From Eledone cirrhosa (lineage: Eukaryota), in the NCBI GenBank assembly GCA_964016885.1, contig OZ024751.1, positions 30,504,001-30,568,000 of the forward strand: a DNA stretch of 64,000 nucleotides, given 5' to 3'. Position numbers and translations under genes: made by a program. Below, one piece after another: positions 3,037-48,616 of the stretch; the first letter of the stretch is position 1, and each line of letters opens with the position of its first letter. A model generated the notes under the pieces. It did not search any database. It saw only the letters and a list, made by a program, of their open reading frames with translations, and had not been told where the DNA came from.

Positions 3037-3134
3037 AATATATATATATATTCACATATATATCCACACGCATATATATGTGTGTGTGTATGAAGTTATC
3101 TCTAGGTCTTCTCTTTGATGTAGCCCCATACATG

Positions 3135-3212
<78 letters not shown>

Positions 3213-3299
3213 CACAAGAAAAAACAAAGAACTCATAAACACACACACACACACGCACACACACACACACCTGTGTGCATACGCCAACAATATAATACT

Positions 3300-3628
3300 C
3301 TCAGACATCCCCGTGTTCACACACAGACTGAAGCAACACACACCTACTTATTTCATCCCTTCGACACACACACAACCACATACGACAACCCTGGACCCTC
3401 TATGTCAGCCCTTACCCCAATGCAGGATCTCAACCTATCATTTTCCTCCCAATAACCTTTCCTAATTTTCACACACTACTTACTTTCTTGTACGTACCTG
3501 TTCTCTCCTTATCCGAAATTTCCTGATAAAGGACTTCTGTCCGAAACGTCTAACCCGCCTCCACTTCTTCGAAGCGTGAATCTAATATGCCTTTGTATTT
3601 TTACATCCCTGTGTTTTGTTTCATTTTC
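3300..3628 (+). mobile_element. Decayed 3' end of a Penelope-like element (ORF end plus hammerhead remnant)
   Basis: The peptide SALTPMQDLNLSFSSQ* resembles the LGTLxPxGLN..FS terminus of PLE endonuclease ORFs. CTGATAA-A-GGAC-TTCT-GTCC-GAAA-CG-TC at 3523-3550. Lies between (CA)n and (CT)n. Confidence 0.5.
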
Positions 3629-17822: not shown

Positions 17823-18224
17823 TCTCTTTTGATCATCTTATGATATCTCTTTTGATCATCTTATGATATCTCTTTTGAATGACCATCTTATGATATCTCT
17901 TTTGAATGACCATCTTATGATATCTCTTTTGAATGACCATCTTATGATATCTCTTTTGAATGACCATCTTATGATATCTCTTTTGAATGACCATCTTATG
18001 ATATCTCTTTTGAATGACCATCTTATGATATCTCTTTTGAATGACCATCTTATGATATCTCTTTTGAATGACCATCTTATGATATCTCTTTTGAATGACC
18101 ATCTTATGATATCTCTTTTGAATGACCATCTTATGATATCTCTTTTGAATGACCATCTTATGATATCTCTTTTGAATGACCATCTTATGATATCTCTTTT
18201 GAATGACCATCTTATGATATCTCT
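17823..18224. repeat. 27-bp minisatellite (13 identical copies preceded by two 23-bp variants)
   Basis: TCTCTTTTGAATGACCATCTTATGATA repeated. Confidence 0.95.
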
Positions 18225-26929: not shown

Positions 26930-27760
26930 CCATGTTTTCTTGCATGAAATGCATTGGGATTCATTCTTTCTATCATTCGGCTTTCACTCTGATCCAGATC
27001 ACGATTATGTACTTTTGAATTCTCCTCCACATGTACCATATGTCAAATTGGATGCAAGGAGTTGGCTGCATTCCACCTGTGGCATTTCTACTTGCTTACC
27101 TAGGTGACTGATAAAGCCAGCTTTTGGTAGGCACATTCGGTCACATGACCTGTGGCATTTCTACTTGCTTACCTAGGTGACTGATAAAGCCAGCTTTTGG
27201 TAGGCACATTCGGTCACATGACCTGTGGCATTTCTACTTGCTTACCTAGGTGACTGATAAAGCCAGCTTTTGGTAGGCACATTCGGTCACATGACCTGTG
27301 GCATTTCTACTTGCTTACCTAGGTGACTGATAAAGCCAGCTTTTGGTAGGCACATTCGGTCACATGACCTGTGGCATTTCTACTTGCTTACCTAGGTGAC
27401 TGATAAAGCCAGCTTTTGGTAGGCACATTCGGTCACATGACCTGTGGCATTTCTACTTGCTTACCTAGGTGACTGATAAAGCCAGCTTTTGGTAGGCACA
27501 TTCGGTCACATGACCTGTGGCATTTCTGCGTGCTTACCTAGGTGACTGATAAAGCCAGCTTTTGGTAGGCACATTCGGTCACATGACCTGTGGCATTTCT
27601 GCGTGCTTACATAGGTGACCTGTAAAACCAGATGTTGATGTATAGAGGTCTCTACATGTTGGTCTTTCTTAGCTGTGCGCTTAATGGTAACCCATTCCGA
27701 AGCAGATAACTGAAAAAGTTTTACACCATTAGATATAACGGTGCCTTTACACAACCAAAT
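26930..27760 (-). mobile_element. RTE-like LINE 3' remnant with an internal tandem array
   Basis: ISNGVKLF..KRTAKK..CHRSCDRMCLPKAGFISHLGKH resembles the C-terminal C2H2-like motif of RTE ORFs. Confidence 0.6.
27075..27619. repeat. 73-bp tandem repeat, 7 full copies plus a partial
   Basis: ACCTGTGGCATTTCTACTTGCTTACCTAGGTGACTGATAAAGCCAGCTTTTGGTAGGCACATTCGGTCACATG at 27075, 27148 ... 27586. Confidence 0.95.
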
Positions 27761-41689: not shown

Positions 41690-43188
<1,499 letters not shown>

Positions 43189-43877
43189 TGTGTGTGTATA
43201 GATTATATATATATTTATATACATTATATTTGTATGACATACATGTGTAAACGCATCCTAATGTATATGTGTGTGTGTACGACACTGGCCTTTGTGTGTG
43301 TTTGCTCGGTAGCGGAGGTTTAGAGGTAACAAACATAGTTGAGAACCATTTTGAGTAAACAGACGACAGGAGACAGTTTGTTTGCTGAGCGTTCACCCAA
43401 CATTGGTCGTGGTTCATACTATCGATAACGGATTAAAATTCCTACATCGCCCATCTGCTTGTCGCCATCTTTTTCTTATACTTTTTACTTTCCGTAAACC
43501 CCTTGCTAGACCACAACAGACCCAGGAGATTAGTAAACCCTATCCACGCTAACAAACTAACCGACAGACGACCTTCTCCAAGTGCTTTTGTCTAGTCACA
43601 ATATTTATTATTCGGCAGGTCAGACAGTCACTGGTCTCATTTGTCTTTGACCAGAAAGGTTTTGACATTATATATATTATCTTCTTCCCCGTGTTCCACT
43701 TGACATTGTAATTATAAAGACGTCTTGTCTTTTTGTATGTTTGTTGTTTTTTTTAGGGAAGGGGCGGTGGGGCTGGGAGGCTGGAAGGCTGTTGGGTGGG
43801 GGGGTTTCCTACTCCACCAATCTAAGAAAATGTATATAGTGAAGTCTGCTCATTCAAATCTGAGCGGGTTAATATGA

Positions 43878-45994: not shown

Positions 45995-46061
<67 letters not shown>

Positions 46062-46298
46062 CATTTAGAAACACACAGATACATGCGGACACACACATAT
46101 ATACATGAATGCATCCGCACCCAACTGTGAGTTAAGGGTGCCAACTTCACCGATGTTGCTCAATGAATGACTGGGACAGACCAATTCAGTTTGAACCAGA
46201 CTGAACCAGTATCAGAGTTAAAAATACATTATGAAGAGAGAAGAAACATTTAGATATAATTAGTAATAAAATGTATCATACCTAAACTGTTCCTAAAT

Positions 46299-46386
46299 TC
46301 CTCGACTACGTAGTTTCGTGGCATAAACAAAAACAATATATCAAAGATATAGAGTCCCTGCGAGGTCTGCCGACTTATCAAGAGGA
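46299..46386 (-). ncRNA. Type I hammerhead ribozyme, U3-A8 core variant (inverted copy)
   Basis: Exact reverse complement of 48426-48513. Confidence 0.75.
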
Positions 46387-46889
46387 TACCTCATTTTACT
46401 AGTCTCAAGAACGCGTCTACACGACGTGAGAAAGAATCCCAAAAGGCGGAGGGGGAGATAGTCACGCGATATAACGGTCGAGAAACAGAGCTAAGCCTCT
46501 TATAACCACGAAAAAAATACCACGGAGGCGGAGGGGGCATTCATATCGAGGCCGTAGAAGAGGTAGTGAAGAAGGCGAGAAGTATGAGTAATGGAAGCTT
46601 TCCAGTTGTCCCCACACTTCAAAGATTGCTCGACCAGAGGGAGTTATTAATACATTTAGAAACACACAGATACATGCGGACACACACATATATATATGAA
46701 TGCATCCGCACCCAACTGTGAGTTAAGGGTGCCAACTTCACCGATGTTGCTCAATGAATGACTGGGACAGACCAATTCAGTTTGAACCAGACTGAACCAG
46801 TATCAGAGTTAAAAATACATTATGAAGAGAGAAGAAACATTTAGATATAATTAGTAATAAAATGTATCATACCTAAACTGTTCCTAAAT

Positions 46890-46977
46890 TCCTCGACTAC
46901 GTAGTTTCGTGGCATAAACAAAAACAATATATCAAAGATATAGAGTCCCTGCGAGGTCTGCCGACTTATCAAGAGGA
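46890..46977 (-). ncRNA. Type I hammerhead ribozyme, U3-A8 core variant (inverted copy)
   Basis: Exact reverse complement of 47835-47922. Confidence 0.75.
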
Positions 46978-47834
46978 TACCTCATTTTACTAGTCTCAAG
47001 AACGCGTCTACACGACGTGAGAAAGAATCCCAAAAGGCGGAGGGGGAGATAGTCACGCGATATAACGGTCGAGAAACAGAGCTAAGCCTCTTATAACCAC
47101 GAAAAAAATACCACGGAGGCGGAGGGGGCATTCATATCGAGGCCGTAGAAGAGGTAGTGAAGAAGGCGAGAAGTATGAGTAATGGAAGCTTTCCAGTTGT
47201 CCCCACACTTCAAAGATTGCTCGACCAGAGGGAGTTATTAATACATTTAGAAACACACAGATACATGCGGACACACACATATATACATGAATGCATCCGC
47301 ACCCAACTGTGAGTTAAGGGTGCCAACTTCACCGATGTTGCTCAATGAATGACTGGGACAGACCAATTCAGTTTGAACCAGACTGAACCAGTATCAGAGT
47401 TAACATTTTTAACTCTGATACTGGTTCAGTCTGGTTCAAACTGAATTGGTCTGTCCCAGTCATTCATTGAGCAACATCGGTGAAGTTGGCACCCTTAACT
47501 CACAGTTGGGTGCGGATGCATTCATGTATATATGTGTGTGTCCGCATGTATCTGTGTGTTTCTAAATGTATTAATAACTCCCTCTGGTCGAGCAATCTTT
47601 GAAGTGTGGGGACAACTGGAAAGCTTCCATTACTCATACTTCTCGCCTTCTTCACTACCTCTTCTACGGCCTCGATATGAATGCCCCCTCCGCCTCCGTG
47701 GTATTTTTTTCGTGGTTATAAGAGGCTTAGCTCTGTTTCTCGACCGTTATATCGCGTGACTATCTCCCCCTCCGCCTTTTGGGATTCTTTCTCACGTCGT
47801 GTAGACGCGTTCTTGAGACTAGTAAAATGAGGTA

Positions 47835-47922
47835 TCCTCTTGATAAGTCGGCAGACCTCGCAGGGACTCTATATCTTTGATATATTGTTTTTGTTTATGC
47901 CACGAAACTACGTAGTCGAGGA
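47835..47922 (+). ncRNA. Type I hammerhead ribozyme, U3-A8 core variant
   Basis: Stem I TCCTC(47835-39)/GAGGA(47918-22); core TTGATAA(47840-46); stem II GT(C)GGCA..TGCCAC with a long loop; GAAA(47904-07); palindromic stem III A-CTACGTAG-T; GUC triplet with predicted cleavage after 47917. Confidence 0.75.
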
Positions 47923-48425
47923 ATTTAGGAACAGTTTAGGTATGATACATTTTATTACTAATTATATCTAAATGTTTCTTCTCTCTTCATAATGTATTTT
48001 TAACTCTGATACTGGTTCAGTCTGGTTCAAACTGAATTGGTCTGTCCCAGTCATTCATTGAGCAACATCGGTGAAGTTGGCACCCTTAACTCACAGTTGG
48101 GTGCGGATGCATTCATGTATATATGTGTGTGTCCGCATGTATCTGTGTGTTTCTAAATGTATTAATAACTCCCTCTGGTCGAGCAATCTTTGAAGTGTGG
48201 GGACAACTGGAAAGCTTCCATTACTCATACTTCTCGCCTTCCTCACTACCTCTTCTACGGCCTCGATATGAATGCCCCCTCCGCCTCCGTGGTATTTTTT
48301 TCGTGGTTATAAGAGGCTTAGCTCTGTTTCTCGACCGTTATATCGCGTGACTATCTCCCCCTCCGCCTTTTGGGATTCTTTCTCACGTCGTGTAGACGCG
48401 TTCTTGAGACTAGTAAAATGAGGTA

Positions 48426-48513
48426 TCCTCTTGATAAGTCGGCAGACCTCGCAGGGACTCTATATCTTTGATATATTGTTTTTGTTTATGCCACGAAACT
48501 ACGTAGTCGAGGA
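48426..48513 (+). ncRNA. Type I hammerhead ribozyme, U3-A8 core variant (copy)
   Basis: Identical to 47835-47922, shifted by 591 bp; predicted cleavage after 48508. Confidence 0.75.
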
Positions 48514-48582
48514 ATTTAGGAACAGTTTAGGTATGATACATTTTATTACTAATTATATCTAAATGTTTCTTCTCTCTTCATA

Positions 48583-48616
<34 letters not shown>

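Follow-up and report, generated by a model that had tools for sequence, protein, structure and literature searches.

The 591-bp element in the window (the whole 64-kb stretch of Eledone cirrhosa DNA analysed here) belongs to a young, non-coding family with a predicted hammerhead ribozyme. The family is likely to be copied by a Penelope-like reverse transcriptase (RT), with one monomer RNA, probably a circle and probably edited by ADAR, as the template. The element works like a non-LTR retrozyme and, by its testable genomic features, is one, with self-cleavage and the circle being predicted. This agrees with an earlier note on this DNA, which had proposed a retrozyme-like, recently active family mobilized by Penelope-like enzymes, a reading that is consistent with every genomic test run.

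Retrozyme circles have been proposed as insertion templates since 2016-2020, in the papers cited here as a model rather than as a result, and the origin of tandem, inverted and tailed Penelope-like insertions has been named as an open question (Craig 2021, PMC8557442). Both points can be addressed here with genomic evidence at population scale, which indicates a single monomer behind each insertion, two programmed priming sites that are each used once, and a sense template. The family also points to a way in which RNA editing of the cephalopod type is probably passed back into the inherited DNA. If this is true, the genomic copies are a fossil record of the RNA stage. The family also makes measurable rules of the standing models of retrozyme circles and Penelope insertions. 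The RNA would be 591 nt long and a young enzyme family resides in the same genome, which makes the model testable in vitro.

Architecture of the element

The array at 46057-48588 is a head-to-head pair of arms, not simply a tandem repeat. The left arm (1,347 bp) and the right arm (1,184 bp) together make 4.28 units of 591 bp, in keeping with the approximately 4.3 near-identical copies counted in the earlier note. In a self-comparison at period 591, 754/756 positions of the left arm and 589/590 of the right are identical, as against about 25-33% identity at adjacent periods. The arms are mirror images about 47406 with 2 mismatches, and their junction is a near-perfect hairpin with its centre at that position. 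The (TA)n insertion site had also been read correctly, with runs on each side of the array at 46025-46058 and 48586-48614. Positions within the unit are given as phases, phase 1 being the base after the predicted cut (47918). The features are as follows.

46025..46058: left (TA)n target run
46057..47403, minus strand: left arm, 2.3 units, ribozyme strand facing outward; 3' end at distal site A (phase 247)
46299..46386, minus strand: hammerhead predicted by descriptor, cut 3' of 46304
46890..46977, minus strand: hammerhead predicted by descriptor, cut 3' of 46895
47397..47415: head-to-head junction, left arm from phase 83 and right arm from phase 79, extra C at 47404
47405..48588, plus strand: right arm, 2.0 units; 3' end at proximal site B (phase 80)
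47683, plus strand: phase 357, A>G relative to the family majority, in each of the 4 units that cover it, on either arm
47835..47922, plus strand: type I hammerhead predicted by descriptor and folding, cut after C47917
47835-47839 paired with 47918-47922, plus strand: stem I of that hammerhead
47840-47846, plus strand: hammerhead core UUGAUAA, U3-A8 variant
47847-47903, plus strand: extended stem II of the hammerhead
47863, plus strand: phase 537, A>G carried by all 4 units that cover it, on either arm; recurrent on several haplotype backgrounds
47904-47907, plus strand: GAAA of the hammerhead
47907-47916, plus strand: palindromic helix III of the hammerhead
47918..48508, plus strand: 591-nt monomer predicted from two successive cuts, with strong self-pairing (z about -5)
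47990..48002, plus strand: phase 73-85 of the unit: site B, one of the family's two fixed 3' ends
48155..48166, plus strand: phase 238-249 of the unit: site A, the second of these fixed 3' ends
48159, plus strand: phase 242, A>G at site A, marker of the window's subfamily
48426..48513, plus strand: hammerhead predicted by descriptor, cut after 48508
48586..48614: right (TA)n target run

The unit (591 nt, 42% GC) contains no recognizable protein, as first reported, its longest stop-to-stop frame being 86 aa. It lacks an open frame with RT and GIY-YIG domains, and its 5' ends lie inside the unit in the 118 mapped insertions, both of which show that it is not an autonomous Penelope-like element. 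A Pfam scan of 28 of the 39 open reading frames in the window gave no match, and a tRNA scan of all 64 kb found no genes. An A-box-like word was considered and set aside, as a proper B-box is absent.

The predicted ribozyme

A type I hammerhead descriptor was run on the 64-kb window and on 1,000 shuffled 591-mers. It matches the window in four places, all at the expected unit positions, and none of the shuffled sequences. The claim of one predicted hammerhead per full unit thus stands, and so do the cleavage positions assigned to it, after 47917 and 48508 on the plus strand and at 46895 and 46304 on the minus strand. At the gathering score, Rfam has no hit; at E<=10 it has 35, none from a hammerhead family, and its miRNA hits were rejected as artefacts of the palindrome centre.

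The ribozyme is composed of a 5-bp stem I, the core UUGAUAA, a 57-nt stem II, GAAA, a palindromic helix III and GUC. Its U3-A8 covariant core is of the type described for Schistosoma Penelope-like elements (Cervera & de la Pena 2014, PMC4209133). In folding predictions, the canonical monomeric ribozyme lies 1.1 kcal/mol above the minimum, while two copies co-fold without constraint into a double hammerhead, which is the minimum-energy fold of the dimer (-58.1 kcal/mol vs 2 x -22.2). This Penelope-type core, predicted to function best as a dimer, is absent from the earlier note. Among the 118 mapped insertions, the core and stems I and III have no locus-wide variant. The full monomer is predicted to be strongly self-paired, whether circular (z -5.2, 40 shuffles) or linear (z -4.9, 100 shuffles), and the ribozyme region is mispaired in this fold, as would suit a stable circle. 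Self-cleavage of the unit transcript is a prediction from models of its fold, and cleavage as a dimer followed by circularization is probable. Among predicted retrozymes, cleavage was obtained for only 1/9 (Li, Clavereau & Pollet 2026, bioRxiv 10.64898/2026.07.22.740005), and in vitro a hammerhead is dispensable for insertion (Frangieh 2024, PMC11167929).

A young family of thousands of copies

The search for further copies that the earlier note had proposed was productive: the genome (3.0 Gb) has 5,064 exact matches to a 30-nt ribozyme motif and 0 to the control. It also encodes a hemocyanin unit with bit scores of 650-659 to PDB entries 1JS8, 4YD9 and 6R83 and of 460-507 to 3J32, 8TRZ and 8TNV, which by the species of these entries places the host among the cephalopods. 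A relaxed ribozyme pattern gave 7 matches, all of them variants of the unit, three as judged by mapped loci and the others by their letters. The mapped sample consists of 118 insertions: the 37 closest to the window unit, the 41 closest to a second unit, and 40 in their order of occurrence on C1, so that 78/118 were chosen by similarity to the two query units. One old fragment and one duplicated copy were left out. Since these 118 insertions share the same architecture while carrying private variants, an assembly artefact is unlikely. Divergence is 0.09-0.32% within one locus and 0.5-1.1% from the column majority. The sequence (TA)4 is present on both flanks in 103/115 insertions, and informative target-site duplications are found in 7/115, vs 2-3 in shuffled pairs.

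Contigs were examined for 4 of the 6 listed sequencing runs, and two of these contigs are recorded here as observations. In one from run X5 (depth 4.94), four A>G are seen that X1 lacks, and run X4 yields a single 621-nt cycle at depth 7.8, a form in which a circle and a tandem array look alike. Both contigs were kept out of the evidence for their low depth, their unrecorded library kind and possible carry-over between libraries.

Two fixed 3' ends

On the ribozyme strand, 187 of the 192 3' ends in the 118 insertions are located at site B (phase 72-87) or at site A (phase 236-252). The two sites are approximately 165 nt apart and both kinds of end run into (AT)n, as is also seen genome-wide, where pattern counts give at least 2,558 B ends and at least 1,785 A ends. 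The 5' ends are scattered and are not enriched at the cut site (8/192 vs 6.5 expected). Inverted insertions are head-to-head in 74/74 cases, and 70 of these have one end of each type (AB); there is no AA and no BB, the last 4 having a ragged end. Among the first 100 listed, one pair on C1 looked like AA but turned out to be two separate insertions. This use of each end once per inverted insertion is a further observation that the earlier note does not contain, as are the one-monomer bottleneck and the strand-specific A>G imprint discussed below.

At the junctions of the 70 AB insertions, the arms overlap in 50, meet bluntly in 9 and are separated by inserts in 11. Near-hairpin junctions, where the arm starts are no more than 20 nt apart, are in excess (13/70 vs 4.9 expected, p 0.001), and the window's junction is one of them. 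Both arms exceed one unit in 22/70, the longest arm reaching 4,255 bp. No significant signal was found for stalling of one arm at the other arm's site.

One haplotype per insertion

The two arms of an insertion are almost always of the same haplotype. At polymorphic sites they differ in only 8 of 2,379 comparisons, vs 188.6 expected for independent donors, and 5 of these 8 disagreements involve alignment gaps. Where a variant is shared between loci, all units carry it in 203 of 214 multi-unit cases, and another 33 variants, each private to one locus, extend through the whole of it. There are about 12 partial variants, in line with some conversion between units or arms. Among the 118 insertions, no mosaic pattern of units recurs between loci. 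If one monomer is the source and is read more than once round from two starting points, the simplest template is a circle, and the insertions probably derive from a single, likely circular, 591-nt RNA.

A strand-specific A>G imprint

Substitutions that fill a locus must have passed through the RNA stage, whereas those found in a single unit arose later. Polarity was set by majority; two older copies indicate that phases 14 and 289 may be G>A and phases 107 and 353 A>G. On the ribozyme strand, A>G makes up 25 of the 59 distinct locus-wide substitutions vs 6 of 146 single-unit ones (Fisher 7.6e-11), and the other locus-wide classes include T>C (8), G>A (8) and C>T (7). The imbalance between A>G and T>C has a p of 1.6e-5. 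After removal of two clustered loci, A>G still accounts for 16/48; it accounts for 18/46 among rare variants and 23/51 among variants repeated within one arm. Locus L229 carries seven A>G in every covering unit of both arms, and L227 carries four or five. The window's own units have three such changes, at phases 242, 357 and 537.

The 5' neighbor of the A>G sites is U or A in 21/25 (p 0.007), and this preference, with U/A favored and 5'-G depleted, is that of ADAR (PMC5663115); enrichment of a 3' G at these sites is not significant. Four-gamete conflicts affect 43/78 pairs at A/G sites, vs 23/65 and 1/10 for the pairs set against them, a homoplasy such as recurrent editing would give. In the predicted fold, the A>G sites are not more paired than other adenosines. 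Genes with an adenosine-deaminase (A_deamin) domain occur at 4 places in the genome, and in cephalopods repeats are reported to be edited ubiquitously (PMC9068888). ADAR is probably the cause of the A>G excess. The strand on which this excess lies points to a template of sense polarity, against an antisense self-priming model.

A candidate Penelope-like partner

The same genome contains 10,596 GIY-YIG candidates. One young family, L097, has a 938-aa open frame with RT and GIY-YIG domains, and terminal repeats of 673 bp that are 99.4% alike, with a U3-A8 hammerhead. A zinc-knuckle before the endonuclease suggests that it belongs to the Neptune or Nematis clade (Craig 2021, PMC8557442). L097, too, ends at two fixed points, which lie 83 and 144 nt beyond its predicted cut (61 nt apart). 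Of 25 copies examined by eye, 13 are inverted: 11 have one end of each kind, 1 is odd, 1 lies at a gap, and none is homotypic. The distance from the cut to the proximal end is 83 nt in L097 and 80 in the 591-bp unit, and both have TTTCTAA before the distal end. L097 shows no A>G excess (57 A>G, 56 T>C). When the unit was compared with 44 GIY-YIG loci and the terminal regions of five Penelope-like families, no homology beyond microsatellite was found. The L106 terminal region, which gave the sole significant score, was rejected as a partner since the match is microsatellite. As it shares no alignable sequence with the unit, L097 is a candidate partner only, and its role as the source of the enzyme is put forward tentatively, at somewhat less than an even chance. 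Mobilization of the unit by a Penelope-type enzyme is itself very likely, and priming of one RNA by both target ends is fairly likely.

Relation to known mobile elements

L1 elements are said to undergo twin priming, attributed to Ostertag and Kazazian, in which two target ends prime one RNA and the cDNAs are joined by microhomology with their 3' ends outward. The second site is reportedly variable and the two segments do not overlap. In the 591-bp unit, on the other hand, neither site varies, and the overlap between the arms extends over whole units.

With animal non-LTR retrozymes (PMC7229834; Li 2026, bioRxiv 10.64898/2026.07.22.740005), the family shares non-coding tandem units with one type I hammerhead each, a GC content below 45%, a self-paired monomer, thousands of copies and co-resident Penelope-like elements. 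The life cycle proposed for them involves tandem cDNA templated on a circle (PMC7229834; Li 2026). The unit is longer than the approximately 170-400 nt of invertebrate retrozymes (PMC7229834), but within the 51-972 bp range of Li 2026. It differs from them in its U3-A8 Penelope-type core and 57-nt stem II, and in that its insertions are mostly short and dispersed, many of them head-to-head, in (TA)n. Kinship with Penelope terminal repeats concerns about 21/57 Xenopus retrozyme families and so is not universal; none was found for the unit in the 44 loci and five terminal regions compared. Fixed paired ends and an A>G imprint are not reported in the excerpts of PMC7229834 and Li 2026, and PMC7229834, whose main text mentions no octopus or cephalopod, raises RNA editing as a possible source of RNA heterogeneity only.

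The minimal U3-A8 Penelope hammerheads (PMC4209133) have in common with the unit the covariation, a 5-bp stem I, a palindromic helix III suited to dimers, and an unpaired base near the foot of stem II. Unlike theirs, the helix III of the unit can form 3 bp as a monomer, and the unit is an ORF-less tandem repeat. In Penelope-like elements with the endonuclease (EN+), an optional tail extends one of two inverted repeats (Arkhipova 2013, PMC3846280; Craig 2021, PMC8557442); it corresponds to the span between two RT start sites, and the enzyme cuts and extends both strands in vitro (Frangieh 2024, PMC11167929). Two alternative 3' ends, head-to-head copies and TA or AT-rich targets are common to these elements and the unit. 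However the unit has no ORF, its tail is approximately 165 nt instead of 30-40, its arms are often longer than one unit, and it follows a strict one-per-arm rule, not an optional extension. Its ends also share short AUAU identity with the target, while the anole Penelope enzyme primes without homology and needs none (Frangieh 2024, PMC11167929). Chlamys elements such as MRC1 (Craig 2021, PMC8557442) are likewise ORF-less, multicopy, head-to-tail and Penelope-mobilized, but the Chlamys clade is without canonical hammerheads, and 3' sequence is common to its members and their partner.

In the titles and abstracts listed by literature searches, there is no report of a cephalopod retrozyme, of Penelope twin priming, of ADAR edits fixed in retrozyme copies, or of a strict one-end-per-arm rule. 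The main text of a recent octopus repeat annotation (PMC13282606) never mentions ribozymes, and the unit may be listed in its supplements as an unclassified repeat.

Model for insertion

The model that we favor starts from a sense transcript of at least two units, which would be cut by the double hammerhead to give a 591-nt monomer that is then closed into a circle. ADAR would deaminate some adenosines of this structured RNA. A (TA)n run would be cut on both strands by the Penelope-like enzyme, leaving two 3' ends that would prime at A and B on the same RNA, aided by AUAU pairing. Each cDNA could make several passes round the circle before the two are joined 5'-to-5' by microhomology, which would produce the head-to-head form. 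With only one productive primer, the product would be a direct, 5'-truncated array. In its fullest version, a single ADAR-edited circle is read from two programmed sites by double rolling-circle reverse transcription, the edits become heritable and drive the evolution of the family, and the same process explains the Penelope tail and the inverted copies; the chances for and against this version seem to us about equal.

The same element and enzyme might instead use an uncut linear multimer, transcribed from a few homogeneous master arrays, the ribozyme being incidental and no circle being formed. A homogeneous master would then be needed for each of the 33 private variants that fill a locus and for each of dozens of haplotypes. 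Mosaic patterns do not recur from locus to locus, and editing would differ per unit, whereas L229 has the same seven A>G throughout. We consider a multimer rather unlikely, even though the anole enzyme works mainly on unprocessed RNA in vitro (Frangieh 2024, PMC11167929), uncut RNA also fits the lack of run-off at the cut site, the L119 and L054 variants are in the same unit register in both arms, and some conversion occurs between neighboring units. A different proposal keeps one target end priming on RNA and derives the second arm from the first cDNA, which would fold back and prime its own copying, much as in the self-priming model of Arkhipova 2013 (PMC3846280). This accounts for the concordance of the arms, and the excess of near-hairpin junctions (13/70), along with four mirror-register variants found in both arms at L054, L059 and L119 (registers assigned by hand), suggests fold-back or gene conversion in a subset. 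Thus fold-back may be the source of some second arms. It is not general, however, because neither arm nests in the other in 11/70 insertions of the full set (vs 15.8 expected, p 0.09), which supersedes an early hand-read subset more favorable to it (2/52 non-nestable pairs vs 6.4 expected, p 0.04). It also leaves the second arm's constant use of the other site without explanation, and its antisense-template version predicts T>C, not A>G, on the ribozyme strand. As the mechanism of the family, it is improbable.

Another possibility retains the architecture as described and attributes the A>G changes not to ADAR but to a polymerase bias, in transcription or RNA-to-RNA copying, or to selection for G-U-tolerant changes. 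But C>T likewise keeps G-U pairs and is not enriched (7 locus-wide, 27 single), and the depletion of 5'-G, the clustered A>G in L229 and L227 and the absence of an excess in the co-resident L097 family all speak for ADAR, so that despite the lack of enrichment of A>G sites in predicted helices and the uncertain polarity at a few common sites, a non-ADAR origin is unlikely. Finally, a DNA-level mobile satellite, amplified in a Helitron-like manner or by rolling of an extrachromosomal circle around an incidental ribozyme-like motif, is largely excluded: a DNA circle would likewise leave a single haplotype in each array, but would not give the strand-specific A>G spectrum, the fixed 3' and variable 5' ends, the behavior identical to that of an RT-encoding Penelope-like family, or a ribozyme core and stems I and III that are free of locus-wide variants.

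Returning to the favored model, in which a sense transcript is processed to a circular monomer, the head-to-head arrangement has a consequence for the window's own copy. A transcript crossing the entire palindrome would probably form a long dsRNA instead of releasing the monomer.

Penelope-like families and hammerhead motifs

A candidate mobilising partner of the 591-bp unit is a young Penelope-like family whose copies carry a reverse transcriptase with a C-terminal GIY-YIG domain, and among the copies listed most have a frame of 775 aa. Its hammerhead is of the U3-A8 type and its target is TA, while inverted copies have two fixed ends 61 nt apart, with one used per arm. Another locus, L065, apparently lies within the run of TA that follows a copy of this family at its 3' end. 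Additional Penelope-like families end in (AT)n; one element, L099, has a frame of 1,096 aa, and on its inverted arms the two ends are separated by about 30 nt. Elsewhere in the genome there are also hammerhead-like motifs whose core is the canonical C3-G8 type, and these bear no relation to the unit.

Elements and motifs at other loci of the Eledone cirrhosa genome (G000)
L097:2280-7930 (contig C1) and L151-L170: young Penelope-like family
L099; L100/L101/L106; L105; L107: additional Penelope-like families
L102:1033-1087; L109:4462-4516; L104; L106:7486-7523: C3-G8 hammerhead-like motifs
L255; L260:3129-4037: older unit subfamily, sharing about 90-94% identity with the unit in the window
C6:13644405-13646174: adenosine-deaminase domain inside a single 700-aa open frame

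Variants of the unit

In the older subfamily, both units of L255 have a stem II deletion. At L055, 258 bp of AT-rich sequence unrelated to the unit (3076-3333) is captured between the insertion's two arms, and at L209 and L261 the entire inverted insertion is duplicated in tandem with its flanks, at a spacing of about 2.6 kb. The unit also contains an A-box-like word, directly past site B (one of the family's two fixed 3' ends), followed by a B-box-like word with one mismatch, at a spacing too short for a normal Pol III promoter.

Features of the window
47422-47442 (plus strand) and, again, 48013-48033: A-box-like word followed by B-box-like word
27075-27631: 73-bp tandem, 7.6 copies, 98%
17830-18224: 27-bp tandem, 14.8 copies, 98%
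41690-43235: TA-rich run, 1.5 kb

The unit recurs nearly unchanged, at a depth of 8-12, in sequencing runs X4 and X6, which are labelled as two other organisms. This may reflect carry-over, RNA or real sharing.

Adenosine-deaminase genes

The adenosine-deaminase frame on C6 is apparently intronless, whereas the adenosine-deaminase domains on contigs C1 and C25 are split by introns.
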